A stretch of DNA of 64,000 bases, from UHGV virus genome UHGV-0174779. One strand, written 5' to 3'. The position numbers and the translations under genes were made by a program. Position 1 is the stretch's first letter; every line of letters begins with the position of its first letter. Positions 19,148 through 35,548 of the stretch are shown piece by piece. The notes under the pieces are model-generated. The model worked only from the letters and a program-made list of their open reading frames with translations. It was not told the DNA's origin and did no database searches. Source of the stretch: a virus.

Positions 19148-20347
19148 ATGTTTCCAGTAACATTAGAAGATACTGAAGGTAATGTTTTAACGGTTTATCC
19201 TCCTTGCTATGGATTCCTTCAGCTCCGCAACTATAACGGTGGTGCTGATGAAGGTGATGATGGCAAATACGATGAATATTTTGAACCTAACACCTATGAG
19301 GCAACTCGTGGGTGGAATATGCACGTTAAGGTTTGGAGCGAAGCATCTAATATTCGTAGTGCAGATGGGCAAGACTGCCTGTTAAGTGACGAGATGGATA
19401 TGTGCGATATTAAACATATCTGGAACTCTGGAACCCACTTAGATATGTTAGGTTTTCTGAGTTATCGTGACAAAAAGCCTGTAACCAAAGGGTTGGGTTG
19501 GGGTAATATTGATCAGGAAGGTGAGCTTAAAAATAACATTGAACGTTGGAATGACAAAAACCCTGAGTATCAAACCACACCTCGTGCTGTACTGGAAGCT
19601 ATGGAAGCATTTGTGGACAAAGACCGTCCCTCCTGTTTACGCTGGCACGAAAAAGGTTTTATGGGTGTAGCAACTGAGAATGTCCATGCTGACCGTTGTC
19701 TGTTCTATTTGATGTTAGACCGAACCTTCTATTGTGAAGATGAAGAGAGTCAGGTTGAAACCTTCCTTCATAAATGGTTGGTTGAAGGCTGGACAATCCT
19801 TCAGGCCTATGTTTACTCACGAATGGTTAGCACTTACACTAACCTCTTAGGAGAAACAAAAACAACTCTGGTTGGTAATGATTGGGATGCTTGTATCTTC
19901 CCAGCATCACTGTTTACAGTTGGTATGGCTGATAAGTATACTGAAGCATTTAAAGTGCCTTGGCGTCAGCAGTCGTACAATCATGGTTGTGGTCACTTCC
20001 GTGATGAAGATTTTAAATGGATTAGTTATGAAAATAACGAAACATCAGATTTACGAGTTAATAACTCAATGTTCTTGCCGGTGATGCACCCCGATTTAGT
20101 AAAGAGTGGATCAGAAACACTTGAATGTGACAACCTTCTGGTTAACTTTGTTCGTCGGGTATCTAAAGGTGAAAGAACAGCTGACAAATTACTCTACGGT
20201 AATCGTATCGAGACTAAGGATATGTTCAACATCTATAACATTATTCAGCGATTTAGTAGTGGAACTCTGGACCAAAGTTCGGAGTATTCAGTGGTTCCAT
20301 CCTCTGAATGGGATGGTATTATGAGCGGATTATTTTTAGGAAAATAA
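19148..20347 (+). CDS. protein of unknown function (399 aa), first gene of amidoligase cluster
   Basis: RBS AGAGGT; tightly linked to cluster. Confidence 0.65.
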   Translation: MFPVTLEDTEGNVLTVYPPCYGFLQLRNYNGGADEGDDGKYDEYFEPNTYEATRGWNMHVKVWSEASNIRSADGQDCLLSDEMDMCDIKHIWNSGTHLDMLGFLSYRDKKPVTKGLGWGNIDQEGELKNNIERWNDKNPEYQTTPRAVLEAMEAFVDKDRPSCLRWHEKGFMGVATENVHADRCLFYLMLDRTFYCEDEESQVETFLHKWLVEGWTILQAYVYSRMVSTYTNLLGETKTTLVGNDWDACIFPASLFTVGMADKYTEAFKVPWRQQSYNHGCGHFRDEDFKWISYENNETSDLRVNNSMFLPVMHPDLVKSGSETLECDNLLVNFVRRVSKGERTADKLLYGNRIETKDMFNIYNIIQRFSSGTLDQSSEYSVVPSSEWDGIMSGLFLGK

Positions 20348-20357
20348 AAGGTTAGTT

Positions 20358-21329
20358 ATGTCAATCTCCACAACGATCGTACCTCTGAATCTTCAACAAG
20401 ATTTAGGGGAACAGAAGTTCTTAGGTCGTGGGTGCTTCGGTATTCACAACTACATGCAAGGCCAAGTCATAAATGACATTAATGGCGACTCTGTAATGGA
20501 AGAAGGGATTCATAAACGCTTCAACCGTGATATCAACTTGCAATTGGAGATGTTGAATTACTGGACTCACTCTTTTCATGGTCTCGCTGCATCTGACATT
20601 GAAAAGAACTTGGTTGAAACAGCAGACATTATGAACTCTATGTCTTGCTATCGTGATGTATTTACGATCACTTCAGCGAATAGTGTTGCTGTCAACCTCC
20701 GTGAGCATCCAGCAGATCAAATCTTCACAGGACTTATGCTCTTCCGTAGTATTCTGGAAGGGCAGTATCGTGGAATGGATTTCCTATCAGAAGGAATTGA
20801 AGACAGGGAAGAGTGGCTGAAGCGTAAACGCATCGGAATTGCTCTAGTGTTAGCTGGGTTAGGTCGAGACTTCTTCGGTGGATGGTCTCAACGAGGAACC
20901 TCCAATGGGAGTGGAGAGAACACATCCATTGTTATTAACAACAATATGTCAGCAGCAGCATTCCTTCCTTTGGTTGTAGACTCTGATGAATACACGAAAC
21001 AAGTGTGGGTTCAAAACCCCTTCGGTGTTGGTGACAACAAGGACGGTTATGTTCGCAACCATAACCAAGATGCCTTACGAAGATTTGCTCGTGCTAAAGA
21101 TCAAGACCCGGACGAGTATGAAACAATGTCAGAGTGGTTAAGACTCTGGTCCAGCTGTCATGGTCACAAACGTGAAACAATAGACAATAAGTTGGAAAAC
21201 ATTACAGTACAAAACTTTACAGCCCGATTGATTCAGCGTACTGGTCCAACTTCTGGCCTTACGACTGAAGAAGTTGGTAACACAATCTCATCTCTCTTTT
21301 CTGAACTAGTGGAGTATTACAATGACTAA
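20358..21329 (+). CDS. protein of unknown function (323 aa), amidoligase cluster
   Basis: RBS AAAGG; overlaps next gene. Confidence 0.65.
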   Translation: MSISTTIVPLNLQQDLGEQKFLGRGCFGIHNYMQGQVINDINGDSVMEEGIHKRFNRDINLQLEMLNYWTHSFHGLAASDIEKNLVETADIMNSMSCYRDVFTITSANSVAVNLREHPADQIFTGLMLFRSILEGQYRGMDFLSEGIEDREEWLKRKRIGIALVLAGLGRDFFGGWSQRGTSNGSGENTSIVINNNMSAAAFLPLVVDSDEYTKQVWVQNPFGVGDNKDGYVRNHNQDALRRFARAKDQDPDEYETMSEWLRLWSSCHGHKRETIDNKLENITVQNFTARLIQRTGPTSGLTTEEVGNTISSLFSELVEYYND

Positions 21330-22128
21330 GCGCAAATTCTTAATAGGCAGCGACCCTGAGCTCTTCGTTCGTACTAGCAACGGAATCATCACCTCTGTAG
21401 CCGGTCTTCTAGGCTGCTCTAAGGACGATAAGATCGCTCTGGCTAAGGATGTTCGTCTTCAAGAGGACAACGTATTGGCTGAGTTTGATATTGACCCACA
21501 GAGCGGTTTTGAAGCGTTTAATGATAACATGCAACGTGGTATTGATCTCACCAATAGAGTCCTGAACAAACTGGACATGGAAACAGCTCCGGGTGTTAGC
21601 TCTCACATCTTCACTGAAGAGGAGATGAAGACTTTCAATGAATCAGCGTTCATCTTCGGATGTACTCCTGATTTCAACGCTTTCACTGGTCAGAAGAATC
21701 CATCCCCGACTTCTCAGAACAAGGGGCTTCGTACTGCCGGTGGTCACGTACATCTTGGCGTAGTTGGTTCTTTGGATATCACTCTGCAAACTCAGATGAT
21801 GCTGGGTGTGCTGTGTGACTACTTCCTATCACTCCCAGCAGTTATCATGGATAAAGATACTCGCCGTAAAGAACTTTATGGCAAAGCATCTGCAATCCGT
21901 TATAAGGACTACGGTATTGAATACCGTTCACTGTCCAACTTCTGGATTAACGATCGTGAAAATCGTAAGTTTGTTTACGATCAGGTTGACAAGGTTGTTC
22001 AGCAGTGTGATATGTCCACTCTGATGGCATTGCACTCTCGTCTTCCGATTGAGAAGCTTCACGAAATTATTAACGGTAATAACGTTAAAGAAGCGGACCA
22101 GCAGATCAAACTCCTTCAGGTAGCATAA
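21322..22128 (+). CDS. COOH-NH2 ligase (glutamine-synthetase/GCS2-like fold), putative
   Basis: N-terminal IGSDPELFV and GGHVHLG motifs resembling carboxylate-amine ligases. Confidence 0.5.
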   Translation: MTKRKFLIGSDPELFVRTSNGIITSVAGLLGCSKDDKIALAKDVRLQEDNVLAEFDIDPQSGFEAFNDNMQRGIDLTNRVLNKLDMETAPGVSSHIFTEEEMKTFNESAFIFGCTPDFNAFTGQKNPSPTSQNKGLRTAGGHVHLGVVGSLDITLQTQMMLGVLCDYFLSLPAVIMDKDTRRKELYGKASAIRYKDYGIEYRSLSNFWINDRENRKFVYDQVDKVVQQCDMSTLMALHSRLPIEKLHEIINGNNVKEADQQIKLLQVA

Positions 22129-22137
22129 GAGGTTATC

Positions 22138-22755
22138 GTGAGCTTAGTAGCTGATTTTTCTCATTACTATAGTGGCACATGGATTGCTAAACGAGCAGGC
22201 AACATCAACCTTCCCTGTTTTGTGATTGGTGTTGAGCAGAGAGGTAACTTCCGCAGCGACGACTTCTCACATGAAGCAGAACAAGCTCTGTACTTTGTTG
22301 TAGAGCAATGGTACAAGAATGAGAACGGGATTCTCCGAAACACTACGATGAATATTCCAGTGTTTGACCCAACCTTGATTCTTGAATCACCTGATGTTGG
22401 CTATCTGTTCCATAATGGTAACACTGTAAGCTGGACTCATATCAACCCTGTTCGTCAGAGAGCGAAGGGTTTGGTGGGTAACAAGATTCGAAATGCTCCG
22501 GGGGTTGGTCGTTCTATCTCTGGGGAAATGGTTTACAGTCTATTCAATCCTGAATTTGATGGATTGGTTACTCGTTACATTTACATCAACCCTACAGATG
22601 GTAAAGTGCATTATAAAGGTGCACGGGTAGGTCAGGTAGATCTGGAAGCACCTCGTGACTCTTACGGTCAGCAACCGATGCGACTTCTGGAACATTTTCA
22701 TCACATCTCTGAAAACCTTAGCAATTATAATATTACGTTGGTGGATTCGTTATGA
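22138..22755 (+). CDS. protein of unknown function (205 aa, GTG start), amidoligase cluster
   Basis: RBS AAGAGG. Confidence 0.5.
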   Translation: MSLVADFSHYYSGTWIAKRAGNINLPCFVIGVEQRGNFRSDDFSHEAEQALYFVVEQWYKNENGILRNTTMNIPVFDPTLILESPDVGYLFHNGNTVSWTHINPVRQRAKGLVGNKIRNAPGVGRSISGEMVYSLFNPEFDGLVTRYIYINPTDGKVHYKGARVGQVDLEAPRDSYGQQPMRLLEHFHHISENLSNYNITLVDSL

Positions 22756-23855
22756 CAACTGTAGCGCAAACTTTTGGATATCGAGAAGGTCGTTTAACTG
22801 AGGCGCATAGTTCAATTGCACTTCAGTGCGGTGTCGGTATTGAACTTGAACTCGAAGGTTCTGAACATATCGAAGCAGATATGTGGGATTGCACAGAGGA
22901 TGGTTCCCTGCGTAACGGTTGTGAAATGGTATGTTCACGACCTTACAACGGACAGGAGTTGTTAGACGCTATCAACAACCTGAGTGAAGCAGTAGCTGAA
23001 TCGCACGCCGAGGGGACTTGGCGTTGCTCTACTCACGTTCATATGGATATGAGGGATGCTGATAGTAATATCCTCAAGAAGACCATTCTAGCTTGGACCT
23101 TCTATGAAAAGATGTTGTTCAAGTGTTCAGGCTACCATCGTTACCGTAGCAACTTCTGCCCTGCTTTCGCAGTGGTACAAGCACAGGTAATGAATGCCTC
23201 TGACGCATTTAACTACGACGATGAAGAGTTCTTCAACCGTCTGGTTCGTTCATGGGATAAATATACATCTCTGAACCTTCTGCCACTTGCCCAATATGGT
23301 TCGATCGAGTTCCGTATCAGTGAGCCTAAGTGGAAACGTGGTCAACTTCTCAATCTGGTTAACCGCTTCTTAATGTTGAAGAAGCTGGCTTTAGATAACG
23401 CAGAGATGAGCAATGATCAGTTTATCGAGCATTTAAATACTGTACGATTTGCCCCAATGCTTCCTTATCTTCCACTAGATTACAGTCTGGATGAATTGGA
23501 TTTGCATTCAGGGTATTGTATGGCCCGTGATGTTTTGTACTGCCGTTCTCATGAAGTAGAGCAGTCTGGTCGTATTCGTTTACGTCGAACCAACCCAAGT
23601 GGAGAAGTTCTTGTTGACTTACGTCTTATCTCAGACTTCTATGGATACCTTGGATATGTCCGAGGGAATGCTAACAACTTGTACCAAGAGATTTTGGTCA
23701 TGCTTAATACAACAGATCTATCTACTGTACGATCTGCACCAGAGCAATGTATCCGTGAGATCTTTGACTTACTTCGTGAGTCAGGCCATATTGATAATAA
23801 TATCACAGGGTACATTCCAGATCATCTGGAGTATCAGTTAGAGCAAGCGCTGTAA
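22752..23855 (+). CDS. amidoligase (glutamine-synthetase-like fold), putative
   Basis: GVGIELELEG...EDGSL...CSTHVHMD motifs typical of predicted amidoligases. Confidence 0.6.
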   Translation: MTTVAQTFGYREGRLTEAHSSIALQCGVGIELELEGSEHIEADMWDCTEDGSLRNGCEMVCSRPYNGQELLDAINNLSEAVAESHAEGTWRCSTHVHMDMRDADSNILKKTILAWTFYEKMLFKCSGYHRYRSNFCPAFAVVQAQVMNASDAFNYDDEEFFNRLVRSWDKYTSLNLLPLAQYGSIEFRISEPKWKRGQLLNLVNRFLMLKKLALDNAEMSNDQFIEHLNTVRFAPMLPYLPLDYSLDELDLHSGYCMARDVLYCRSHEVEQSGRIRLRRTNPSGEVLVDLRLISDFYGYLGYVRGNANNLYQEILVMLNTTDLSTVRSAPEQCIREIFDLLRESGHIDNNITGYIPDHLEYQLEQAL

Positions 23856-23934
23856 TCAATGGGTGCCTCTGATAAAGGGGCACAATTTAAAGGTTAATTA
23901 GATGAAAGGGTTTACCCTTCAGGTGGATTAGAAA

Positions 23935-25965
23935 ATTTGCGGCATCGTATTAGCTGGCGGTAATCTGTCAAGCACCGATTTAGACGTATTCAACCAACTC
24001 TTTTATGCTGGGGTATTCCGAGGACAACATTCCTCTGGTATCTTTGGTCAGCGTAAAAGTACTAAGGAAGTCTTCACTTATAAGGAAGCTCTTCCCTCTT
24101 TCGCATTCATCCTACAAGATGAGTATAAGAAGCACACCACTGGTGAAACATCTTATACTGTAGCACCTTCATGGATTGTTGGTCACAGTCGTCATGCAAC
24201 GAAAGGTGCAGTTAACGCCAAGAACGCCCATCCTTTCCAACACGGTAACATCACTCTGGTTCATAACGGAACCTTGATGGACCAAGATCTGTTACCTGAC
24301 AGTAAAAACTTCGAGGTAGACAGTGAGAACATCTGCTACTCTATTAACACTATTGGTGCAGCAGAGACTATTCAAAAGCTGGATGGTGCTTTCACCTTAA
24401 TCTGGCATGATGCTTCTGATAACCGTCTTCATATTATTCGTAACGAAGAGCGTCCTTTCCATCTCGCACGTTGTAATAGAGATTGGTTTGGTGCTTCTGA
24501 AGAAGATATGCTGATGTGGATTCTGAAGCGTTCTAAGTCTCACAAAAACCGAATTGATGAGCACTTTGAATGTAAAGTTGGTACAGAATATATCTTTGAT
24601 ATGTCAAACAACAGCATGACTCTGGTTGAAGAGGTCGCCCATGAGCTTCCGGTTTTTACGGTAGTCAATCGTTGGGCCAGTTACTACTCGAACAACTACA
24701 GCCAAAGCAATTATCAAAGCTCCTCAAAAAGCAGTACAAGCAATCCTTACGACACGAAGCCGGGAGTGACAGCGGCAGACGTTCGTCGAAGAAACGCAGT
24801 GGTAAGTCAAAACAAAATCGCAAGCGATCGAAACATTGATATTCGCCGCGACATGACTGTGGAAATCACACCACATGAATTTGTTCCCTATGCAACTGCT
24901 GGTGCTGTTCCTTCTCGTGGTAAGATGATTGGTTATATCTACGATGAGAAATCTCAAGAGTACATTGAAGGTGATGTTCATAACGTAGACATTAAGGCTT
25001 ATCAGGATGCCCTGAAAGACCCTAAAATTGTTTACCGTGGGACAGTATCCTGCATCTCCGAAGTCGATGCTATGGTTCGTTTAGTAATCACAGCAGGTCG
25101 TTTTGTTGACCCATCTCTGGAGAAAAAGGAGCCTGAGTCAACTACTGCTGACTTCGATGATGATATCCCTTTTGACATGAATGATAGTTTCGTCAACAAG
25201 AATGGCGTTACTATCACTCGTAAATTCTGGGAAGCACACTCTCATGGTGATTGTGGTGGTTGTGACAAGCACATTGATTGGAAGGATGCACCTAAAGCAG
25301 TCTTCGCATATCAGTGCTACTGGCATCCCGAGTGTCTGGAAAGGTTGACTAAACCTAAAGAGGAAGAAGAGGAGGAGACTCCTATCGGTGTTTGTGAAAT
25401 CTGTGGTGAGGTTAAAACAGAGAATGAGTTCGATGAAGAACTTAGCCGCCTCCGTGGTGAAGATATCTGTAAAGACTGTGCTGTAGAAGTAAAGAAGAAA
25501 GTGTCTAATGCTACGATCAAAGATGGTTATGTCTGGATTAAAGCAACAGATACAACAAACACCCGTCGTCCTGAAATTGCTGTACGTGTAACTGAGGAAA
25601 TGATTGGTCGTATGACCGTATTACCCTCCTCAGCGAAACAAACAGGTATCACTCTGGAAGATGTTGTTGATGCTTATGTTGAGAAACGTGGCAACAGTAT
25701 TTTTGCAATCTCGACTAAGCCAAAAAAGGAGGAACCTGCTGAGAAAGCAGGTGTGTTTCCTGAATCACGAACAGCTCTCCGCAAAACTGTTGTCAGCTTC
25801 GACGGAAATCGAAGCACTGACTTCACCAAAGCCATGTGGTCAACCCTCGGATACTGCTCAGAGTGTTTTAAGCAGATTCCGTGGCGCGATGCTGAAAGTT
25901 GTACGCTTGGTTCTATGAATCAAGTTTATTGTAATTCTCCTAAATGTTCATTGAATAGAGGTTAA
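23935..25965 (+). CDS. class-II (Ntn) glutamine amidotransferase domain fused to Cys-rich zinc-ribbon repeats; predicted AUU start
   Basis: Frame is open from stop at 23929; translation CGIVLAGG...RGQHSSGIFG...HSRHATKGAVNAKNAHPFQHGNITLVHNG matches the GATase-II N-terminus (MCGIVG). The only codon that puts Cys at position 2 is ATT 23935, 8 nt after AGGTGG. The track ORF 24274-25965 (TTG) would remove the catalytic domain. Confidence 0.65.
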   Translation: MCGIVLAGGNLSSTDLDVFNQLFYAGVFRGQHSSGIFGQRKSTKEVFTYKEALPSFAFILQDEYKKHTTGETSYTVAPSWIVGHSRHATKGAVNAKNAHPFQHGNITLVHNGTLMDQDLLPDSKNFEVDSENICYSINTIGAAETIQKLDGAFTLIWHDASDNRLHIIRNEERPFHLARCNRDWFGASEEDMLMWILKRSKSHKNRIDEHFECKVGTEYIFDMSNNSMTLVEEVAHELPVFTVVNRWASYYSNNYSQSNYQSSSKSSTSNPYDTKPGVTAADVRRRNAVVSQNKIASDRNIDIRRDMTVEITPHEFVPYATAGAVPSRGKMIGYIYDEKSQEYIEGDVHNVDIKAYQDALKDPKIVYRGTVSCISEVDAMVRLVITAGRFVDPSLEKKEPESTTADFDDDIPFDMNDSFVNKNGVTITRKFWEAHSHGDCGGCDKHIDWKDAPKAVFAYQCYWHPECLERLTKPKEEEEEETPIGVCEICGEVKTENEFDEELSRLRGEDICKDCAVEVKKKVSNATIKDGYVWIKATDTTNTRRPEIAVRVTEEMIGRMTVLPSSAKQTGITLEDVVDAYVEKRGNSIFAISTKPKKEEPAEKAGVFPESRTALRKTVVSFDGNRSTDFTKAMWSTLGYCSECFKQIPWRDAESCTLGSMNQVYCNSPKCSLNRG

Positions 25966-25970
25966 ATCAG

Positions 25971-26204
25971 ATGGAAATTCGTAAGATGATGTTGGATAAT
26001 GTTGTAACTACTCGACGTATCCCGATGACGAGCACAGGATGTGACAACCTTCGTGCAATCCAGAAGTGGATGCAAGCTGGTATTGGTCAAGTACTTGAGA
26101 CACAGGTTGAGGTTCCGTTCCCAACGGTGATCAATAACGTACTTGCTGATTATGTAAAAATCAAAGGCATTAAGGTAGAACCTCATGTCAAATCTGGTTC
26201 CTAA
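25971..26204 (+). CDS. hypothetical protein (77 aa)
   Basis: ORF only. Confidence 0.4.
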   Translation: MEIRKMMLDNVVTTRRIPMTSTGCDNLRAIQKWMQAGIGQVLETQVEVPFPTVINNVLADYVKIKGIKVEPHVKSGS

Positions 26205-26409
26205 GAAACCGAAGATTACTCTCCTACAGTATTACATAGGAGTTCATATCGAATTAGTAACGGAGCAGCGAAAGCTGTATCCGTTCGCTTTCGGTCTGAT
26301 TGATGCACCATCCGATGAAGTAGAGAACGATGCGTTCAATGACTACTTCGAAATTGAAGCTCAGATTCAAAAAACTCGTAACGAAATTCTTAAACTTAAA
26401 GGTATCTAA
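26185..26409 (+). CDS. hypothetical protein (74 aa)
   Basis: ORF only. Confidence 0.4.
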   Translation: MSNLVPKKPKITLLQYYIGVHIELVTEQRKLYPFAFGLIDAPSDEVENDAFNDYFEIEAQIQKTRNEILKLKGI

Positions 26410-26411
26410 CA

Positions 26412-27608
26412 ATGACTACTCGTATCCGTGTTCTCCCTTATGGCCCTTCTGATTCAGTTCGTGAACTTACTTCTGCTATTAATGCTAAGATTCAGGAACT
26501 TCGACTGAATGCTAACGTAATGTCTCTGGTATCAGAAAACTCTCGTTATCGTTCTCGAGCCGGTGATATTGTTGTAAACTATGGCAACCGTCGTTATGAT
26601 GCTTCTTTCTTTGGTGGTGCAACCGTACTGAACCCTGTTGAAGCCCTGAACCGAGCAGCTAATAAAGTTGCAGCATTTAACGCATTACGGTTGGCTGGAG
26701 TTAAGACTGTTGAATATACCGTTGATCGTGAAGTAGCTCAGAGCTGGAACCAAAACGAAATCGTTTATGAGCGTGCAACCTTAACTGGACATTCTGGTGA
26801 AGGCATCACCGTACGTCTTCCGGGAGAAGGTACTGCAAGTGCTCCTCTGTATACGAAAGGTATTCAAGGTCCGCGTCGTGAATGGCGTGTTCATGTGTTC
26901 GAAGGTGTTATCACTTACGTTCAGAAGAAGATTCGTCGTAATGGATATCGTGAACTGGAAAGCTATCGTGAAAATATTCGCAACCATCACACTGGCTGGG
27001 TTTACTCTAACTCTTTCACTGAAGCTCCTCCTGATCAAGTTCTGATTCAAGCCCACAAAGCTGTGTCTGCTCTGGGTTTAAACTTCGGCGCTGTTGACCT
27101 GATTAGTAAAGGCTCTAACGCTTGGGTTCTGGAAGTAAACACTGCTCCGGGTCTGACTGGTACAACTCTGGAAACTTACACTCACAACATTGTTGAGTTT
27201 GTTAAGAGCTTCTCTGGTGTTGAGCCTGACTACCGCGTTGCTTACGAACTGCCTGTTGAAGAGTCGGAAGTTGAGTTTGCTGACTCAGCGGATGATGAGA
27301 ACTTTGCATTGACAGCTGAGCCAGTTGCTGAAGAGTCATCTGAACCTGTTCCTGAAACAATGCAAGTGGAAGAACAAGGGTTAGAGATCAACCCAATCAC
27401 CCGTCGTACCCTGCGTCGTGGTTATTATATCGCGAACATCAAGCATCCTGAAAACGGCTCAACTGTAGCAAGTAATGTAATTGTTTTCTTCTGCGGTCGT
27501 AACTTCTACCGCTCTGGTTGGAACGCACCAATTAGTGATCGTCAGCTTGGTCGTGTGTTGCAGATTAATAGCCTTACCCTGAATGATGGCACTGTTGTAA
27601 ACTACTAA
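26412..27608 (+). CDS. ATP-grasp ligase (RimK/GshB-like) with C-terminal extension
   Basis: ATP-grasp motifs: GHSGEGITV, REWRVHVFEG, GLNFGAVDLISKGSNAWVLEVNTAPGL. Confidence 0.8.
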   Translation: MTTRIRVLPYGPSDSVRELTSAINAKIQELRLNANVMSLVSENSRYRSRAGDIVVNYGNRRYDASFFGGATVLNPVEALNRAANKVAAFNALRLAGVKTVEYTVDREVAQSWNQNEIVYERATLTGHSGEGITVRLPGEGTASAPLYTKGIQGPRREWRVHVFEGVITYVQKKIRRNGYRELESYRENIRNHHTGWVYSNSFTEAPPDQVLIQAHKAVSALGLNFGAVDLISKGSNAWVLEVNTAPGLTGTTLETYTHNIVEFVKSFSGVEPDYRVAYELPVEESEVEFADSADDENFALTAEPVAEESSEPVPETMQVEEQGLEINPITRRTLRRGYYIANIKHPENGSTVASNVIVFFCGRNFYRSGWNAPISDRQLGRVLQINSLTLNDGTVVNY

Positions 27609-27614
27609 GGATAT

Positions 27615-27863
27615 ATGGATATGTTTTCATTGGAAGATCTAGTACAAAATGGAATGATGGAACAAAAAGAGCCTCTGATTGTAGGCTCTCGTAAAGAGTT
27701 GCGTAAGTTGTGTGAGGAATGGGGTATTACTAATCAGCGAATGATTGGTAATCAATTCTCTGCAATTGTAACTTTCCTGAAACGTGGTGATAAGTATTCT
27801 ATGGAATGTGTAGAACGTATCATCGCTGAAGCACAACAAGACAAAGGAGTGACCTATCTGTGA
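27615..27863 (+). CDS. hypothetical protein (82 aa)
   Basis: ORF only. Confidence 0.45.
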   Translation: MDMFSLEDLVQNGMMEQKEPLIVGSRKELRKLCEEWGITNQRMIGNQFSAIVTFLKRGDKYSMECVERIIAEAQQDKGVTYL

Positions 27864-28045
27864 ATAAGTATAAAGTTCTGTTTAAAGATACCAATGCCGC
27901 TGGTGAAATGCGAGCTATGGACCTAGATGCTGATATGTTTAACTTCTCTGATGGCAAAGTGACCTTCTTTCAGGGAAGTGAAGCTGTTGCAATGTTTGAG
28001 AGTGCAGCAATCTGTGGTGTAATCAAAATCTTTATTACAGAGTAA
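27860..28045 (+). CDS. small protein ending in ...ITE (61 aa)
   Basis: ORF overlapping upstream stop; C-terminal Glu. Confidence 0.4.
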   Translation: MNKYKVLFKDTNAAGEMRAMDLDADMFNFSDGKVTFFQGSEAVAMFESAAICGVIKIFITE

Positions 28046-28114
28046 TCTGCTTTAGCCTCTTCGAAAGAGGGGGCTAGTTCGGATAAACTAAACAAACCAA
28101 CAAAGGTATAGATA

Positions 28115-28534
28115 ATGTCAGAAGTAATTTACGTAGCAACTTATGGAAGTTTGAGAAGCGGTCAAGCTAACTATTTAATTAATGACCGAGCTGGTGCTAA
28201 ATCTATTGGTGAAGGTTGGACTGAAGATAACTTCGATCTGTTCCGTTACGGTGGTTCCTACTTCCCGAGCATCTCTCTCGCACACAGCAATAACAATAAG
28301 CCTGTTCGTGTAGAAGTGTTTGCTACTGACAAAGCAGGTCTGGAAGGTCCATATGACCGTCTGGAAGGCTACAACAAACATAGCCCTGAAGATAGCTTCT
28401 ATCAGCGTACCCAGATTGCTGTTAAGATGGACTCAGGTGAAACTGTTATCGCTTGGATTTATCATATCGACGAAGAACAAGATGTTCTGGTTGAGTCAGG
28501 AGACTGGTCAGAGTATCTAAAAAACGAGGGTTAA
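28115..28534 (+). CDS. gamma-glutamyl cyclotransferase (AIG2/GGCT)-like protein
   Basis: N-terminal VATYGSLRSG motif characteristic of the GGCT/AIG2 fold. Confidence 0.55.
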   Translation: MSEVIYVATYGSLRSGQANYLINDRAGAKSIGEGWTEDNFDLFRYGGSYFPSISLAHSNNNKPVRVEVFATDKAGLEGPYDRLEGYNKHSPEDSFYQRTQIAVKMDSGETVIAWIYHIDEEQDVLVESGDWSEYLKNEG

Positions 28535-29000: not shown

Positions 29001-30566
29001 ATGTCAAAGATCATTTTGGGAGACACAGGCTGTAAGGAATGTATCTCTCATGGTCGTGATAAAACCCACAACCACATGATTCTCTTCCGTAACGAAGAGA
29101 CCGGTGAGGAGTGGGGAAGTTGTAACCGTTGTGGGAATTACGAAGTGTTCGAAAAGGGCACTACACCTACTCCAAACGAGAAGAAAGAGTTATCCCCTGA
29201 AGAGTTGAGAGAAGTCTTAGATGATTGCTTAGAGCTTCCTCAGGGTGAACTTACTCGACGTTTAATCCCTAAAGCCGTATCAGAGCGTTTTGAGTGTCGC
29301 ATTGGCCTCAGCCAAACTGATGGTCAGACACCAGACAGTTACTTCTTTCCTCGTGAACGTGATGGAAACATCGTTGGTTACGAGGTTAAACTGCTAGATA
29401 GTAAGAAGTTTTATTACGTTGGCAGTGTGAAAGAAGCAGATTTATTTGGTATGGCACAGGCTCAGCGTGGTGATGTGTACAACAAGAAGCTATTCATTTT
29501 TGAAGACCCGCTATCTTGTATGTCTGGTTTCCATGTCCTTACAGCTTTTACAAATGCAACAAACATTAAGCCAGCATGTGTTTCTTTACCGTTCGGTGCA
29601 GGTTCAATCTCTTCTGTGTTGTCTCGTAATCGAGACTTCGTAAATGGTTTTGAGGAGGTTGTGCTCTGCATGGACAACGATGATGCAGGTGAGATAGCTT
29701 TAACAAAAGGTCGTTCTTTATTCCCTCATGTCAAGTTTGCTCGTATTCCTAAAGGAACTTTCCCATACAACGGTGTGGAGAAAGAGATTAAGGATGCGAA
29801 TGACATGCTTCTGTCTGGTCGTGGTCAAGAGTTATTCAACATTCTCAAGTATTCAGCAAAGCGGGAATCTCCTGCTGGTGCTGTAACAATCTTTGATTGT
29901 CTTGATGATGCTCTGAAGAAAGCAGAATGGGGTATCCCCTATCCGTGGAAGACTCTGAATGAAATGACCTTCGGTATTCGATGGGGAGAGGTGGTAGCAA
30001 TTGGTGGTGGAGTAGGGAGTGGTAAAACACTCATTGCTCACGAGCTGGTTGCTCATCTGTGCTTAGAGCATGGTTTTAATGGAGGTGGCTTCTTCTTGGA
30101 AGAGAAGGTAGGCATGTCTGTTAAGAACATTGCTGGTAAGTCAGCATCTATTCCTTTCCACCGACCAGATGTTGAATATGATGAGGAGGATTTGCGTAAT
30201 GAAGCACTTCGTTATGCAGACAAATTCTTCTTGTATGACAACTTCGGACAGAACGAATGGGAAGACATTAAACAGTGTATCCGTTTCTGGGTAGTTGAAA
30301 ACCAGTGTAAGTTTATCATCCTTGATAACATTACCGCTCTGGTATCTCATTTAACACCTTCAGAGATTAACACTGAAATCAGTAAGATTGCTTCCGAGCT
30401 TGCTGGTATGTGTAAAGAATTAGACTTTACCGCTTTCGTTCTATCTCACCTCAATGCTCCGGCAGGTGGTGCTCCTCACGAAGAAGGTGGACAGGTACGT
30501 GAAGTGCAGTTCACTGGTTCTCGTTCCCTTATGCGTAAACAAACCTGCGCATGTAAAACCTATTGA
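29001..30566 (+). CDS. DNA primase-helicase (T7 gp4-like), 5' portion; reading frame interrupted after helicase motif
   Basis: N-terminal Cys4 zinc ribbon, TOPRIM motifs (EDPLS, MDNDDAGE), Walker A GGGVGSGKT, Walker B FIILDN; C-terminal 11 residues before the stop look non-homologous; the remaining helicase C-terminus is encoded at 31133-31411. Confidence 0.8.
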   Translation: MSKIILGDTGCKECISHGRDKTHNHMILFRNEETGEEWGSCNRCGNYEVFEKGTTPTPNEKKELSPEELREVLDDCLELPQGELTRRLIPKAVSERFECRIGLSQTDGQTPDSYFFPRERDGNIVGYEVKLLDSKKFYYVGSVKEADLFGMAQAQRGDVYNKKLFIFEDPLSCMSGFHVLTAFTNATNIKPACVSLPFGAGSISSVLSRNRDFVNGFEEVVLCMDNDDAGEIALTKGRSLFPHVKFARIPKGTFPYNGVEKEIKDANDMLLSGRGQELFNILKYSAKRESPAGAVTIFDCLDDALKKAEWGIPYPWKTLNEMTFGIRWGEVVAIGGGVGSGKTLIAHELVAHLCLEHGFNGGGFFLEEKVGMSVKNIAGKSASIPFHRPDVEYDEEDLRNEALRYADKFFLYDNFGQNEWEDIKQCIRFWVVENQCKFIILDNITALVSHLTPSEINTEISKIASELAGMCKELDFTAFVLSHLNAPAGGAPHEEGGQVREVQFTGSRSLMRKQTCACKTY

Positions 30567-31132
30567 ACTCAGGGAAAGCTAAGTCGAAAGATATGCCAAT
30601 CCTGAGCTAAGCTAGACAGTCTTCCAAGAGCAAGGAGGCTTTATGGAAGAGAAACAAATAGAAGGTGCATCTAATTATTGGGTGCGGCCTGATGGTACGA
30701 TTTATAATAGTAAAACAGGCAATGTTATCTTAGGGGCCAGACATGGCAACGGATATTTAACTGTTTACTTAAGAATGGATACGGGACAAAGAAAGAAATT
30801 CTACATGCACCGACTAGTAGCTATTGCCTTTGTTCCTAACCCTCACAATTATCCATTTATTGATCACTTGGACCATACAAGAGATAATAACGTGGCAACT
30901 AATTTGGAGTGGGTAACCAACGCTGAGAATGTTCAGAGAGGTTACAATTTCTTTAATTATAAACGGAAGACTGTTTAGAAAGTGCAGAGACTAGGGTGGT
31001 CATAAGACCGAAGTACAGCCAAGTGGTGTCATTAACATTGACTTAAATGGAAGCAGTAGGCACACTTTTGTGTGGTGAGATAGTCCGATCTTGCAGGAAA
31101 CTGTAAGCAGCATGTAGTGGTGCGGGGTATGA
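30531..31132 (+). mobile_element. putative self-splicing (group I-like) intron carrying an HNH homing-endonuclease ORF, inserted in the primase-helicase gene (boundaries approximate)
   Basis: Helicase homology stops near 30530 and resumes near 31133 in an open frame without a start codon or RBS; intervening 0.6 kb contains HNH ORF 30643-30978. Confidence 0.45.
30643..30978 (+). CDS. HNH homing endonuclease (HNH_3 type)
   Basis: HRLVAIAFVPNPHNYPFIDHLDHTRDNNVATNLEWVTNAEN signature; RBS AAGGAGG. Confidence 0.8.
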   Translation: MEEKQIEGASNYWVRPDGTIYNSKTGNVILGARHGNGYLTVYLRMDTGQRKKFYMHRLVAIAFVPNPHNYPFIDHLDHTRDNNVATNLEWVTNAENVQRGYNFFNYKRKTV

Positions 31133-31411
31133 GTAGCGATCATATCTGAACTTTTGTGGTGTCAGTGTATCATTGGCTTTGAGCGTGACAAGCAAGCTGA
31201 TGGCTTAGCTAAGAACCTCTCAGTCATTCGATTACTGAAAGAACGTAACTACGGTCAGACAGGTGTCTGTTATACTAAGTATATCAGTGAGACCGGCAGA
31301 CTTGTAGAAAGGGAAGACTTTGAAGTTGACGAAGATAATCCATTCGTTTTAACTAACGGAGAGGATGCAGCTTCTCTCGTCAGTCAAGCAGATGGAGCTT
31401 CACCGTGGTAA
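31133..31411 (+). CDS. primase-helicase C-terminal segment (exon 2 or split C-terminal fragment)
   Basis: [47 protein letters not shown] aligns to the T7 gp4 C-terminal region ([46 protein letters not shown]); no ATG or RBS. Confidence 0.6.
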
Positions 31412-31962
31412 AGAAAAAGAAGAAAGTGTTTGCATTCGATATCGAGAGTAATGCACTATACGATGATATAACCAAAGTGTGGTGTATTTATATTTTCGAT
31501 GTTGAAACTGATGAAAGGTGGGGCTATCGGCCTCACCAAATTGAAGATGGGATTCGTAAGCTTACAGAAGCTGATGTGATCTTAGGTCATAACATTATTG
31601 ACTTCGACCTTTGTGCTCTGAAGAAAATGTATCCCAATCTGATCGACTATCGTTTTAACGTCTTCGACACTTTATGTCTTAGTCGATATCTTAAACCTGA
31701 CCGTATTGGTGACAGTCCTGAGTATCCGAAAGGCGACCCTAGACATGGCCCAAGAGGTCATGGCTTGAAGCAATGGGGTGAGTTCTTAGGGGAACTTAAA
31801 GGTGATTACGGTGAGCAAGAGGAAGCATGGGATGCTTTCACTGAGGATATGTTTACTTATTGTGAACAGGACGTTAACTTAACTGTTAAGGTTTATAAAT
31901 ACTTGTGTGAACTCACAGGATTTGACCCTTACGACCCACCTTCATTATATTGGAAAATGTAA
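31405..31962 (+). CDS. DNA polymerase A 3'-5' exonuclease domain, encoded as a separate ORF
   Basis: Exo I FDIES, Exo II HNIIDFD, Exo III YCEQD motifs. Confidence 0.8.
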
Positions 31963-31963
31963 A

Positions 31964-33250
31964 ATGATTGTTATCCCGATTAACCGAATTGCAGATAAGG
32001 TTGCTCAACAACCTGATATCACTGTTGGTCGTCACTTCATTGAACAGTTGATTAACAACAACTTGATTCCAGACTGTATTTGTCCCATCATCACTGGTGG
32101 GGCTGTTCGTGATGCTGTTCTTAATAACAGAGCACCTCATGACATTGATATCTTTATTGTCAGAGGACAGGCCCCAAGAACTCGAAATACCTTTATCCAC
32201 CATGACCAGTGGCAAGATCTCGGACGAGAGGTTGAAAGTAATGTGAAGGAATGGCTAGAATCACAAGATATTGAATATGCATCCCTTCTTGCTGAATCTA
32301 CAGATGAGCCGTATACTGGGACTTCTCAACTAACATTCACTGATATTATTGAGTTTCAGTGGAATGGGGTTCGTATCCAATTCATGTTTAATTATCCTAC
32401 TTCTATTGAAGAGGTATTGGATAATTTTCCTATGATGTGCCGTGGTGCGATGACTCTTGACAAGCTGTTCATGACCCCCCAGGGATATTTGGCTATGACC
32501 TCTCCTTGTCCAGTGGTTGTCTCTAGTCGTGAAATCAAGTATGTTCACAAGAAGTGGCCTAATTCACAGGTATTAAGATTCTCCGATCCATCTGTTGCAT
32601 ATCAATATATGGCACAAACTCGATACCTTCCTACACCTCAACCAGTTAGTCATCTGGTCAACGAACGAGGTCAGGTTGCTCTTATTGAGGATACAACAAG
32701 TGCTCATTATTGTGTTAATCGTGACATGAGTCGATTCTTTGGGATCCCTTATGAAGAGATTCAGTTAATGTCAAGCATTCATAGCTCTAGCCAGATTCAT
32801 GCGTATTGGTCTGAAGGGTTGACAAATTTAACAACTAACACGGGTGGTGATCTGCTTGGTCGAGAAGAAGACTCTAACCGACACAATGCAATTGAAGGGG
32901 TTTTTGTATCCCCTACAATGCGTCGAGCACAAGAGTCACGAAGAGTAAGCCCTACTCGTAGAATATCTTTTGAAGATCTTGGTATTACAAGCGATTCTAT
33001 GGAGCAATGGATGGCTAGACCTTCTCGTGGTCGATCAAATGGCTTTACTGTCGGCGCACGTCAGTTCTCTGGTCAGGGTTTTGCTGTTGGTGATATCAAC
33101 GCACCTGTTAGGGCTGTGTGGACTGATGAAGATATGGTAGAGAGTCGCGCTGATCAATTTGTTTCAAATAATCCTGAAGTATTAGAACCTCAAACCCGTA
33201 CAGTTCGGTTTGCCGATGAATCGGGTCGCGGTTTCTCTTTTGAAATGTGA
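31964..33250 (+). CDS. nucleotidyltransferase (Pol-beta superfamily, CCA/poly(A)-polymerase-like head motif) with R/S-rich C-terminal region
   Basis: ITGGAVRDAVL...PHDIDIFIV matches the GGxVRD...DxD nucleotidyltransferase signature. Confidence 0.5.
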   Translation: MIVIPINRIADKVAQQPDITVGRHFIEQLINNNLIPDCICPIITGGAVRDAVLNNRAPHDIDIFIVRGQAPRTRNTFIHHDQWQDLGREVESNVKEWLESQDIEYASLLAESTDEPYTGTSQLTFTDIIEFQWNGVRIQFMFNYPTSIEEVLDNFPMMCRGAMTLDKLFMTPQGYLAMTSPCPVVVSSREIKYVHKKWPNSQVLRFSDPSVAYQYMAQTRYLPTPQPVSHLVNERGQVALIEDTTSAHYCVNRDMSRFFGIPYEEIQLMSSIHSSSQIHAYWSEGLTNLTTNTGGDLLGREEDSNRHNAIEGVFVSPTMRRAQESRRVSPTRRISFEDLGITSDSMEQWMARPSRGRSNGFTVGARQFSGQGFAVGDINAPVRAVWTDEDMVESRADQFVSNNPEVLEPQTRTVRFADESGRGFSFEM

Positions 33251-33271
33251 ACAAATAACTAAGGAATAAGA

Positions 33272-33826
33272 ATGAGTTTACTAGGAAGCCCAGAGTTACA
33301 TAAATTAATTGACGATGGTGTTATTGATGCACCACACTCAGCTGTTAATTCCTCCAGCATTGATGTTCGTATTGGAGATCGCGTTCTGATGGAAGGTGCA
33401 GCTAATGGGGTTGTTGATATCTCTGCTAAAGAGTCCCCTAACTTCAATGAGGTTATGATTCCAGAGGAGGGGTTGGTGATCAAACCGGGTGAGTGTTTCT
33501 TAGCTCATACAGTGGAGACATTCAACCTTCCAGACAACATTAGCTGTGACTTCATGCTACGGTCTACTGTCGGTCGTTGCTTCTTAGAGCACATGCACGC
33601 TGGTCATGCTGATGGCGGTTGGCATGGCAGTCAGTTAACTATGGAATTCAAGAATGTCCTACAGCACCACTCTTTGCTAATTAAACCGGGGATGCGTATA
33701 GGTCAAATGGAGTTCTTTAAACATTCCTCCTCGGAAGAGGATAGCTACGCAACGAAAGGTTCCTATAATAATCAACAAGGGCCAACAAAAGCTTTTGGTG
33801 GAACAAATCATGCTGATATGGTATGA
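33272..33826 (+). CDS. dcd: dCTP deaminase / dUTPase-family protein
   Basis: IDVRIGD, IKPGECFLAHTVE, RSTVGR, GWHGSQLTMEFKN, IKPGMRIGQMEFF motifs typical of dCTP deaminase. Confidence 0.65.
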   Translation: MSLLGSPELHKLIDDGVIDAPHSAVNSSSIDVRIGDRVLMEGAANGVVDISAKESPNFNEVMIPEEGLVIKPGECFLAHTVETFNLPDNISCDFMLRSTVGRCFLEHMHAGHADGGWHGSQLTMEFKNVLQHHSLLIKPGMRIGQMEFFKHSSSEEDSYATKGSYNNQQGPTKAFGGTNHADMV

Positions 33827-33868
33827 TGAAGTCTACTTCATCTCTCTTTTAATGTGGATGAAAGATAA

Positions 33869-34063
33869 ATGAAAAAATTCTGGTTAGCAAAGATTAAGTG
33901 GGCATCAGGAAGTATGACTATGACCGCATTACCTACTCGTCAACAGGCTCGAGATTTTAAAAAGTCTATGTTCCATGGGGACTTAACTAAGAGCGTTAGT
34001 ATTCATAAGGCCAAGGAGTACTCCTCTGGTCGTGTTTATATCAGTGGAAAAGTGCACTACTAA
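33869..34063 (+). CDS. hypothetical protein (64 aa)
   Basis: ORF only. Confidence 0.35.
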   Translation: MKKFWLAKIKWASGSMTMTALPTRQQARDFKKSMFHGDLTKSVSIHKAKEYSSGRVYISGKVHY

Positions 34064-34135
34064 TTGGTAGTAGATATGATAACTCTCAAATGTATATAGA
34101 GTACAATAAGAATTTGTATTTTACAGGAGAGAGTT

Positions 34136-34465
34136 ATGTTAGATTTGAGTAAAGTGGCCCCGCCCACTGAAGAGATTACAAAATCCAAGGTGATGCAACA
34201 GTTTTATCATCGTGATATGCTTGGTCGCTTTATCAAGAATCGTGATGTTGTTGCTTGGTCTATCGGTAATCAGGGATATCTGTTGAAGGTTCTTCAGGTT
34301 ACAGGTTCAACTGCTAAGCGAGTTAAGGTGTATGACCCTGAAATGGGGCGTTCTAAGTCAGTAGACCCACAGAACTGCATCGTAATTACCCAGCAGGTAA
34401 TGGATAATATTGCACGTAACGTTGCTAACTCAGTTGAACTTGATGGAGAAAACCCAAATGCATAA
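34136..34465 (+). CDS. hypothetical protein (109 aa)
   Basis: RBS GGAGAGAG. Confidence 0.45.
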   Translation: MLDLSKVAPPTEEITKSKVMQQFYHRDMLGRFIKNRDVVAWSIGNQGYLLKVLQVTGSTAKRVKVYDPEMGRSKSVDPQNCIVITQQVMDNIARNVANSVELDGENPNA

Positions 34466-35021
34466 GAATGTCTTTGATTTACCTGAGATTGGTCGTGACA
34501 GCTATAGTGTGTTAGACCGGTCTGAGCTTTCAATCTCTCGCCTTGAAACAATGCAGGGTATGATTAGTGGAAACAGCCTAGAACACATCCTGAGCTGCTT
34601 ACAAGCTAACATGGAACTCTTGCATATCAAAGCTAAAAACTACCACTGGAACGTCTCTGGTGCAGGATTTCAGGGTGTTCATGGTATGTTTGATGAGCTG
34701 GAAGATTACGCACGACAAGTAGGAGATCGTATTGCTGAACGTATGCGATACCACTGTGTTAAGGTGGATGCTACAGCAGCTAATTATCTTTCTCACGCTT
34801 GGTTCTCAGAGGGTAATGCTGACCTAGATATGGACGGTATGCTCTCTGATATGTGCATGACCTTGATGTGTATTATCGAGAAGATGGATGAGTTTGATGG
34901 CGATTTAGCCTCCTATCCTGTCGACCAGAGTATGCTTCAAGAAATTAATGAAGGTCTTGGCAAGTATTGTTACTTCGTCAAGAGTAACATGTCCCATTCC
35001 AGTGGTGATGTGTCTTACTAA
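34458..35021 (+). CDS. Dps/ferritin-like protein
   Basis: NYHWNVSGAGFQGVHGMFDELEDYARQVGDRIAERM matches the Dps signature (HWNV.G..F..LH..F.E.Y). Confidence 0.55.
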   Translation: MHKNVFDLPEIGRDSYSVLDRSELSISRLETMQGMISGNSLEHILSCLQANMELLHIKAKNYHWNVSGAGFQGVHGMFDELEDYARQVGDRIAERMRYHCVKVDATAANYLSHAWFSEGNADLDMDGMLSDMCMTLMCIIEKMDEFDGDLASYPVDQSMLQEINEGLGKYCYFVKSNMSHSSGDVSY

Positions 35022-35081
35022 AACTCAAGCCCTGCCTCCTAACCCGAGGTGGGGCGAACTTATTTATAAGGATATAGATAT

Positions 35082-35261
35082 ATGTTATCAGCAATCGTAT
35101 GGGGTATTTGGGCTATCTTTATCGGTGGTGGTATTTATTGGGCTTCTGGTAAGCTTATTGAAGAAACTCCTGATAAGAAAGGTGAGATTCAAACAGCATC
35201 AACCATCATGGTTATCGTAGCTGTTGTTATCCCGTTCCTGCTTCACCTCCTGACTGCATAA
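35082..35261 (+). CDS. small two-helix membrane protein (59 aa)
   Basis: Two hydrophobic segments; below track cutoff. Confidence 0.3.
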   Translation: MLSAIVWGIWAIFIGGGIYWASGKLIEETPDKKGEIQTASTIMVIVAVVIPFLLHLLTA

Positions 35262-35269
35262 GGATTTAC

Positions 35270-35548
35270 ATGTCTAAAGTAATTAAGTTTTATAGTGATC
35301 AGTGTGCTCCATGTAAAGCAATGGCTCCTACCTTTGAGAAGGTTGTTAAGGAGTTTGATGTAGAAGTGGAAGAGATTAACATCCTTGAAGGTGATGGTCG
35401 TGAACAAGCTGTTAAGTATGGTGTACGAAGTATCCCTGCTTTCGTTGTGCCTGACCGTAACAGTGGTGCACACTACAGCCTCTCTGGTATGCAGACTGAA
35501 GCAAACCTGAAAGCATTTTTGGATACAGCTCTGAATGGTAATCGATGA
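35270..35548 (+). CDS. thioredoxin/glutaredoxin-like protein (CAPC active site)
   Basis: FYSDQCAPCKAMAP CxxC motif in thioredoxin-fold context. Confidence 0.65.
   Translation: MSKVIKFYSDQCAPCKAMAPTFEKVVKEFDVEVEEINILEGDGREQAVKYGVRSIPAFVVPDRNSGAHYSLSGMQTEANLKAFLDTALNGNR

Follow-up and report, generated by a model that had tools for sequence, protein, structure and literature searches.

A putative gamma-glutamyl amide pathway: the Kuravirus copy of a widespread phage enzyme cluster

The virus genome UHGV-0174779, analysed here as a stretch of 64,000 nucleotides (nt) that we call the window, is that of a Kuravirus, a phiEco32-like phage of the Gordonclarkvirinae, and carries at 19148-28534 a dense cluster of genes whose predicted products belong to families that form or cleave amide bonds. 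The original prediction, drawn from the sequence alone, had described twelve co-oriented, tightly packed genes, among them two candidate ligases of the glutamine-synthetase (GS) fold, a class-II Ntn amidotransferase joined to zinc ribbons, an ATP-grasp ligase, a GGCT/AIG2-like protein and three larger proteins devoid of recognisable motifs, and had read them as a system that makes and trims gamma-glutamyl or amide bonds. All twelve open reading frames (ORFs) were verified on the + strand, and we refer to them as follows.

19148-20347, + strand: p399, function unassigned; restricted to Kuravirus-like phages and a probable distant paralog of p323
20358-21329, + strand: p323, the protein of about 300 residues directly upstream of LIG2 and the widespread member of the p399/p323 family
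21322-22128, + strand: LIG2, a GS/GCS-fold carboxylate-amine ligase (Pfam COOH-NH2_lig, PF14395, phiEco32-like type 2)
22138-22755, + strand: C205 (p205), with predicted SH3-like barrels and an R-x-x-x-[KR]-[KR]-G loop, probably non-catalytic; coupled to AMD2
22752-23855, + strand: AMD2, a GS-fold amidoligase (Pfam Amidoligase_2, PF12224)
23935-25965, + strand: GAT, a class-II (Ntn) amidotransferase-type domain followed by an acidic linker and zinc ribbons; ATT start
25971-26204, + strand: DUF7195, a small protein encoded between GAT and the ATP-grasp ligase (PF23825, E 4.7e-17)
26185-26409, + strand: p74, a small ORF of Kuravirus-like phages only (PHROG 13464, function unassigned; 11 loci)
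26412-27608, + strand: ATP-grasp, a RimK-like ligase (residues 1 to about 270) with an acidic linker and a small C-terminal domain
27615-27863, + strand: gp79-like transcription regulator, whose homolog in phage Paul is annotated as similar to phiEco32 gp79 (11 loci)
27860-28045, + strand: p61, a small lineage-specific ORF (8 loci)
28115-28534, + strand: GGACT/AIG2-like gamma-glutamyl(amine) cyclotransferase (PF06094, E 7.9e-17), hereafter GGACT

The genes are separated by at most 79 nt, and four of the starts overlap the preceding gene. Going down the cluster, the first six junctions are a gap of 10 nt, an overlap of 8 nt (the end of p323 running over the start of LIG2), a gap of 9 nt, an overlap of 4 nt that couples C205 translationally to AMD2, and gaps of 79 and 5 nt; the remaining five are an overlap of 20 nt, gaps of 2 and 6 nt, an overlap of 4 nt and a gap of 69 nt. 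The 9.4-kb region matches 99 phage records, 66 of them over almost its full length, and is conserved at the protein level; among the matches listed the best has about 93% DNA identity, and all come from Kuravirus phages of Escherichia or Shigella such as NJ01, Paul, SGF2 and ES17. Within the cluster there is no match to Rfam, and none of its proteins matches a PADLOC defence model. The cluster as first described is confirmed, with a reservation on its extent: the gene at 27615-27863 encodes the gp79-like regulator, which lies inside the cluster in Kuravirus-like phages only and is probably not a component of the pathway, and several of the small ORFs are Kuravirus-specific.

The linkage extends well beyond close relatives. 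A tblastn search with AMD2 reached 303 phage records, 120 of them from Pseudomonas phages, and also phages of Aeromonas, Vibrio, Proteus, Salmonella, Cronobacter and Pseudoalteromonas. The same gene order is found in Pseudomonas phage Clew-1, a 45-kb LUZ24-like Bruynoghevirus, and in Aeromonas phage LAh_6, a Lahexavirus; the Zobellviridae phages CVT22 and O4 carry the module in rearranged form. A scan of IMG/VR with a LIG2 alignment gave 69 loci, and in a set of 75 loci ORFs were called and searched iteratively with hidden Markov models (HMMs) seeded from each protein of the window. Among the 73 loci with LIG2, C205 was found in 67, AMD2 in 70, GAT and ATP-grasp in 66 each and GGACT in 57. Sixty-six loci are complete in that LIG2, AMD2, GAT and ATP-grasp are all present, and their order is nearly fixed: a protein of about 300 residues, LIG2, C205, AMD2, GAT, in some cases DUF7195, ATP-grasp and GGACT. 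Starts in the module often overlap, as do GAT and ATP-grasp in the compact marine form. The core thus consists of seven families, to which p399, p74, the gp79-like gene and p61 are Kuravirus-like additions, and it occurs in Kuravirus, Bruynoghevirus, Lahexavirus, Zobellviridae and marine viral contigs at 25-45% protein identity. For each enzyme 58-75 homologs were compared, and the catalytic and metal-binding residues are conserved at levels of at least 80-100%. Given this conservation across 99 phage records and distant lineages, the cluster is not a chance grouping.

Both GS-fold ligase candidates exceed their Pfam thresholds, every Pfam verdict in this study being a bit score set against Pfam's own gathering cut-off. 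LIG2 (PHROG 3815) matches PF14395 at 33.8 bits against a cut-off of 25 (E 2.7e-8), and its residues D11, E13, E48, E54, H142, H144, R182, R193, E200 and R202 are at least 98% conserved in 75 sequences. AMD2 matches PF12224 at 34 bits against 22 (E 3.7e-8), as do 31 of 32 members of its family; the conserved positions are E31, E33, E35, D50, R54, E58, R91, H95, H97, E119, R130, Y171, E186 and R188, with E31, E33, H95, H97, E119, R130, E186 and R188 invariant. The Pfam text for PF12224 reportedly describes gene neighbourhoods that contain a GAT-like thiol peptidase or an Aig2 cyclotransferase.

The ATP-grasp protein is the more divergent case. Searched as a single sequence, it gives weak Pfam matches to RimK and Ddl, below cut-off; a profile built from 31 sequences, compared with solved structures, reaches RimK (7qys) at E 2.8e-10 over about 220 residues and 5zct and 4iwx at E 8e-9, followed by Ddl, ArgX and graspetide ligases. 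Invariant residues are K85, R121, E157, R159, K173, D229, E241 and N243, so that the ATP-binding lysines (K85, K173) and the Mg-binding residues (D229, E241, N243) are retained in all 31 members. Residues 317-398 form a separate C-terminal family, PHROG 20552. Membership of the RimK family proper was not found, TIGR00768 scoring 31.7 bits against 143.4 and the PRK10446 equivalog 16.4 against 331, and the NCBIfam model of MptN also stays far under its cut-off. GGACT is straightforward, with 62.4 bits against 22.8, and its YGSL motif (Y10, G11, L13), the catalytic-type glutamate E84 and Y116 are at least 98% conserved in 58 sequences.

GAT required a correction of its gene model. The program-made ORF list opens it only at 24274; we place the start at 23935, on an ATT codon directly before a cysteine codon (TAG AAA ATT TGC, 23929-23940), with a GGTGGA Shine-Dalgarno site 7 nt upstream and a stop codon two codons before it. 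Since a class-II Ntn amidotransferase needs cysteine as the first residue after methionine, translation must begin here. In the 62 relatives where our scan placed the start, the codon before the cysteine is ATG (53), ATT (7) or TTG (2); ATT is used by six E. coli Kuravirus loci and one unrelated contig, and more distant relatives start with TTG or ATG. The database record of phage Paul starts the gene at an internal TTG equivalent to window position 24274, giving about 563 residues instead of 676 and omitting 113, the catalytic cysteine among them. The SU10 glutamine amidotransferase is listed at 63.8 kDa (PMC4281155), a size consistent with the same truncated model. Cloning from gene models like that of Paul would yield a protein without the catalytic cysteine; the tryptic N-terminal peptide predicted for the ATT start is CGIVLAGGNLSSTDLDVFNQLFYAGVFR.

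The amidotransferase domain of GAT matches GATase_6 at 54.1 bits against 27 (E 2e-14). Residues C2, R29, R86, N111, G112 and D129 are invariant in 32 diverse members, and GAT thereby retains Cys1, R86, N111-G112 and D129, the residues that hold glutamine or the gamma-glutamyl moiety. Conservation is confined to the first 240 residues or so, the tail being variable, and in the same 32 members no further Pfam domain, be it SIS or another synthase domain, is fused to GAT. Identification as GlmS was considered and rejected, since the SIS isomerase domain is missing and the GlmS models score 33-40 bits against cut-offs of 381-418; models of GlmS, PurF, EgtC and AsnB all lie far under cut-off, with GlmS-, PurF- and AsnB-type equivalogs at 18-40 bits against 267-418. 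The name "L-glutamine-D-fructose-6-phosphate aminotransferase", which many database records give to this protein, is therefore wrong, there being no synthase domain and the curated matches falling far below cut-off. In the tail, a scan for CxxC...CxxC finds two zinc ribbons, starting at residues 487 and 641, and a third (CEIC...CKDC, approximately residues 535-560) is visible by eye in the translation. One to three such ribbons occur in the GAT tails of most lineages, two or three in Kuravirus against one in Bruynoghevirus, and none in the marine form.

Profile searches and the conservation of catalytic residues have thus upheld the family assignments of the original prediction, and its overall interpretation is supported. 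Its statement that such combinations had been noted computationally in phiEco32-like phages is also borne out, PF14395 being named "Phage phiEco32-like COOH.NH2 ligase-type 2".

The three larger proteins, p399, p323 and C205, fall into no recognised family: none of them has a match in Pfam, NCBIfam or PADLOC, and sequence searches of the PDB, made with single sequences for p399 and p323 and with a profile for C205, gave nothing significant. A Caudoviricetes record derived from a metagenome contains p399 at 100% identity, and an exhaustive HMM search of 1.84 billion representatives with its profile returned only 23 matches, all of the same family, and no bridge to a known one. In the p399 alignment 41 positions are invariant, many of them Cys, His, Asp or Arg, a pattern that suggests an enzyme; its predicted model has no structural match in the PDB. 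Comparison of profiles further suggests that p399 and p323 are distant paralogs, their motifs aligning with several polar positions substituted in p323; BLASTP finds no paralogy inside the cluster, and the link comes from profile-profile comparison only. The p323 HMM finds 18 loci, and in 27 marine loci the protein of about 300 residues that precedes LIG2 is a p323 homolog according to hhalign (probability 96%, E 5.4e-9, 140 columns). For two upstream proteins of about 320 residues in Bruynoghevirus, profile comparison gave no link to p323 or p399. C205 has only four near-invariant residues, including those of the basic loop R-x-x-x-[KR]-[KR]-G. In its predicted model (pLDDT 70.5, moderate) the loop is disordered and the barrels resemble Tudor, BAH, KOW and SH3-like domains with Z of at most 6; the protein is probably a non-catalytic adaptor or substrate-presenting subunit. 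DUF7195 was found in 23 loci; Kuravirus, Bruynoghevirus and Lahexavirus phages have it, and the compact marine form lacks it.

The strongest internal evidence on the chemistry comes from the enzymes that accompany the ligases. A dedicated gamma-glutamyl-cleaving enzyme is present in 62 of the 66 complete loci: 52 have GGACT only, six Peptidase_C26 only and four both, leaving four with neither. GGACT is thus present in 56 of the 66, and Peptidase_C26 occurs in six of the ten loci lacking GGACT against four of the 56 that have it, in a set of loci that are phylogenetically non-independent. This pattern of replacement points to gamma-glutamyl amide chemistry, and the fact that three kinds of gamma-glutamyl-cleaving enzyme are tied to the ligases argues for the formation and later removal of a gamma-glutamyl amide. 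That GAT keeps the residues binding glutamine or the gamma-glutamyl group, with no synthase domain fused to it, can be counted on the same side. As to where the substitute lies, a gamma-glutamyl hydrolase of the Peptidase_C26/class-I GATase type is encoded directly upstream of LIG2 in locus L063 (9155-9832), and homologs are found within or near the module in L024, L057-L059, L062, L065, L066, L068 and L072. A different gene pair near the module, PRPP-synthetase-like and NAMPT/NAPRTase-like, is seen in distant relatives and Aeromonas phage LAh_6 (L002 2584-5105, L004 1646-4143, L006 14130-17268); we take it to resemble the NARP1 phage pathway for NAD+ reconstitution.

We read the cluster as the Kuravirus copy of a described phage early-gene module encoding a multi-enzyme, ATP-dependent amide-bond pathway built around glutamate and glutamine, and we put the probability of this reading at roughly 0.5. 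That the module makes and trims glutamate-type amide bonds on some target is very probable. The order of reactions, the substrates and the acceptor in the following scheme are our proposal, set on the family membership, catalytic-residue conservation and gene linkage found above. LIG2 and AMD2 would convert carboxylates into acyl-phosphates and couple these to amines, in linkages that, by analogy with their families, may be of the gamma-glutamyl type, and the RimK-like ATP-grasp enzyme would extend a terminal carboxylate by an amino acid, which is most likely L-glutamate. The stand-alone GAT could either pass ammonia from glutamine to AMD2 or hydrolyse a gamma-glutamyl amide, and GGACT would take the gamma-glutamyl group off its amine as 5-oxoproline, a step for which the C26 gamma-glutamyl hydrolase appears to be equivalent in some lineages. 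The acceptor is most likely held or presented by C205 and the p323/p399 family. Overall, the pathway would yield a short amide-linked adduct derived from glutamate. Its synthesis would take place in the cytoplasm, alongside DNA replication functions, and pass through a transient gamma-glutamyl intermediate, following the same logic as BtrJ/BtrG and EgtA/EgtC. A specific large or tethered acceptor, such as a cell-wall precursor or the terminus of a protein, seems more likely than a metabolite of the free pool.

Several points weigh against this reading. Sequence searches of the PDB gave no solved relative of AMD2 or LIG2 with which to compare substrate pockets. The sequence of GAT does not tell a glutaminase from a hydrolase. 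The adaptor role proposed for C205 draws on a moderately confident model and on weak fold matches with Z of at most 6. No Pup-like or LysW-like tag or carrier emerged either, a conserved C-terminal Glu, Gln or Gly having been found in none of DUF7195, p74, p323, p120 and C205. Finally, part of the synteny may reflect vertical inheritance rather than independent selection for linkage, because a block of primase/helicase, sigma factor and polymerase genes is likewise common to the lineages bearing it; on the other hand, the retention of all enzymes and their catalytic residues at 25-45% identity argues for selection on the whole set.

Were the acceptor the cytoplasmic peptidoglycan precursor, the UDP-MurNAc-peptide would gain amide-linked residues, or have them replaced, through the action of the three ligases, and amidation of a carboxylate would fall to GAT. 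Such chemistry has precedents in the amidation of stem peptides by MurT/GatD and LtsA and in the ATP-grasp side-chain ligase Asl. D-Ala-D-Ala ligases are indeed the second-best structural relatives of the ATP-grasp protein, but their matches span some 50 residues of the generic C-terminal Mg-binding part against about 220 for RimK, and among the cluster proteins scanned there is no Mur-ligase or other cell-wall-related domain. A modified wall could exclude superinfecting phages or prepare lysis, the purposes named in the published proposal, which Iyer 2009 and Hardies 2013 made for peptidoglycan or the cell wall and which PMC6256558, PMC11945000, PMC10580990 and PMC11318856 relay; for a strictly lytic phage with a short cycle, rebuilding the wall has no obvious benefit. 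In the literature up to 2025 we found no experimental test, the papers citing the predictions of Iyer 2009 and Hardies 2013 only, and we regard this explanation as rather unlikely. A protein as the target, which we consider unlikely, would mean that a host or phage protein, for instance S6 or an RNA polymerase subunit, undergoes RimK-like glutamylation or receives a peptide tag, with C205 and the zinc-ribbon tails recognising the target and GAT and GGACT processing or recycling it. It draws on the RimK S6-glutamate ligases as the closest solved relatives of the ATP-grasp enzyme, on the SH3/Tudor/KOW-like barrels of the C205 model, typically macromolecule-binding, and on C-terminal domains of GAT and ATP-grasp that differ by lineage; the PafA/Dop pair of pupylation is a precedent for combining a GS-fold ligase with a deamidase. 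On the other side, the search for a tag protein with a conserved C-terminus came up empty, the RimK-family NCBIfam model gives 31.7 bits against a cut-off of 143, and the substrate class of GGACT also speaks against it: the substrates of such enzymes are free gamma-glutamyl-amines that have a free alpha-amino group, and isopeptides within a protein are not among them.

A further candidate product is a free small molecule, a gamma-glutamyl peptide, glutathione-like compound or gamma-glutamyl-polyamine that is made or turned over as auxiliary metabolic reprogramming of nitrogen, redox or polyamine metabolism. The GCS-like ligase, GshB-like ATP-grasp, GGCT and, in the variants, PuuD-like C26 do mirror the gamma-glutamyl cycle and polyamine catabolism, and auxiliary-metabolic-gene interpretations have been given in PMC10580990 and PMC10945688. 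The claims of the latter are correlative only, however, and the strictly conserved non-enzymatic C205, the p323 family and the zinc-ribbon tails would be unusual for a pathway acting on a soluble metabolite; we hold this explanation to be distinctly unlikely. Hypermodification of DNA or nucleotides, in which a base would be decorated with an amino-acid-derived side chain that protects phage DNA from restriction, is very unlikely in our estimation. The idea comes from the BASEL study: broad resistance of the Gordonclarkvirinae to restriction-modification systems was observed experimentally and left unexplained, and the BASEL authors suggest that a PolyA_pol-type nucleotidyltransferase and a dCTP deaminase might underlie DNA modification. 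Matches to amidoligase and amidotransferase Pfam families co-occur with thymidine-hypermodification genes in viral contigs (Lee et al. 2021, PMC8989533), the module lies directly upstream of primase/helicase and nucleotide-metabolism genes, and zinc ribbons and the modelled SH3-like barrels could bind nucleic acid. Against this, the 20 cluster and neighbour proteins scanned contain no 5-HMUDK, aGPT-Pplase, dUMP hydroxymethylase or TET/JBP domain, and an ordinary ThyX is present, which argues that dTMP is made by the normal route. Some restriction sites are strongly avoided, which would not be expected were the DNA fully protected: compared with the expectation from a second-order Markov model, the window (1-64000) has 8 CCWGG sites against 98, no CTGCAG against 20.5, 129 GATC against 283 and 7 GAATTC against 22, and all palindromic hexamers pooled number 688 against 965. 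Sites of EcoRV (28 against 20 expected) and EcoKI (8 against 7) are not avoided. A wider version, in which the module, possibly with the neighbouring nucleotidyltransferase and dCTP deaminase, would modify DNA or a nucleotide precursor or make an anti-restriction factor, is likewise a long shot; if true, it would account for the broad restriction-modification resistance and make p323/p399 and C205 nucleic-acid-handling parts.

The neighbouring region has features of its own. The genes at 31907-36630 encode the PolyA_pol-type nucleotidyltransferase, the dCTP deaminase, a ferritin-like protein and the ThyX thymidylate synthase. Between these and the module, the gene of a DnaB-type primase/helicase (29001-31408) is interrupted: the Paul protein aligns to 29001-30548 with its residues 1-516 and to approximately 31145-31408 with its residues 509-596. 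The insert holds an ORF for an HNH-type homing endonuclease (30643-30978) and is matched at 30487-31107 by the full-length Rfam group I intron model RF00028 with 32.2 bits, E 3e-6, a score that does not reach the gathering score of 50.

Described since 2009, the module is among the most widespread enzyme clusters without an assigned product in lytic podophages, its carriers being phages of E. coli, Pseudomonas, Aeromonas and Vibrio as well as marine viral contigs, and several of these phages are candidates for therapy. Identification of the product would decide between an edit of the cell wall, modification of a host protein, a metabolite and a DNA modification tied to restriction resistance. 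The BASEL isolates Bas88-92 infect E. coli K-12, making genetic tests straightforward. Mass spectrometry of SU10 has already detected the ATP-grasp protein, the GATase, YtfP (GGACT) and a hypothetical protein of 23.3 kDa, listed as early products (PMC4281155).

Set beside known systems, the single enzymes resemble well-studied relatives in part. RimK, MptN and the LysX-ArgX ligases share with the phage ATP-grasp protein the fold and the D-x11-E-x-N spacing of Mg-binding residues and are its best solved-structure and NCBIfam matches; the phage protein differs in scores far below the cut-offs and in its extra acidic linker and C-terminal domain, and the module encodes neither a LysW-like carrier nor an S6-like partner. 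GlmS shares with GAT the N-terminal class-II glutaminase domain (Cys1, R86, N111-G112, D129). For the pathway that we favour, in which a glutamate-derived amide is formed and later trimmed, the closest parallels are cases of transient gamma-glutamylation: in butirosin biosynthesis BtrJ (ATP-grasp) and BtrG (GGCT-like), in ergothioneine biosynthesis EgtA (GCS) and EgtC (a stand-alone class-II GAT hydrolase), and in putrescine catabolism PuuA (GS-like) and PuuD (C26). In each, a ligase installs the gamma-glutamyl group and an enzyme of the GGCT, Ntn-GAT or C26 type removes it, and all three types of remover are found among the variants of the module. The likeness is one of logic only and not of orthology, the EgtC model scoring 20 bits against a cut-off of 219.

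The module as a whole is already known from computational description. Iyer 2009 and Hardies 2013, as relayed in PMC6256558 and PMC11945000, describe seven ORFs for peptide-bond synthesis, and the window has LIG2, AMD2, GAT-II, ATP-grasp and GGCT in the conserved order near primase/helicase. What the present analysis adds is the quantification of the seven-family core across 66-73 loci, the pattern of substitution between GGACT and C26, the RimK-like placement of the ATP-grasp enzyme, the candidate paralogy of p323 and p399, a p399 model with no match in the PDB, the SH3-like prediction for C205 and the corrected ATT start of GAT. In phiEco32, LUZ24/PaP3, PA11, phiRIO-1 and PhiM6 the module consists of the same families, in the same order and at the same position upstream of primase/helicase as in the window. 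The Kuravirus copy differs from these in nothing essential, its extras being p399, p74, p61, the internal gp79-like regulator and a larger number of zinc ribbons in GAT.

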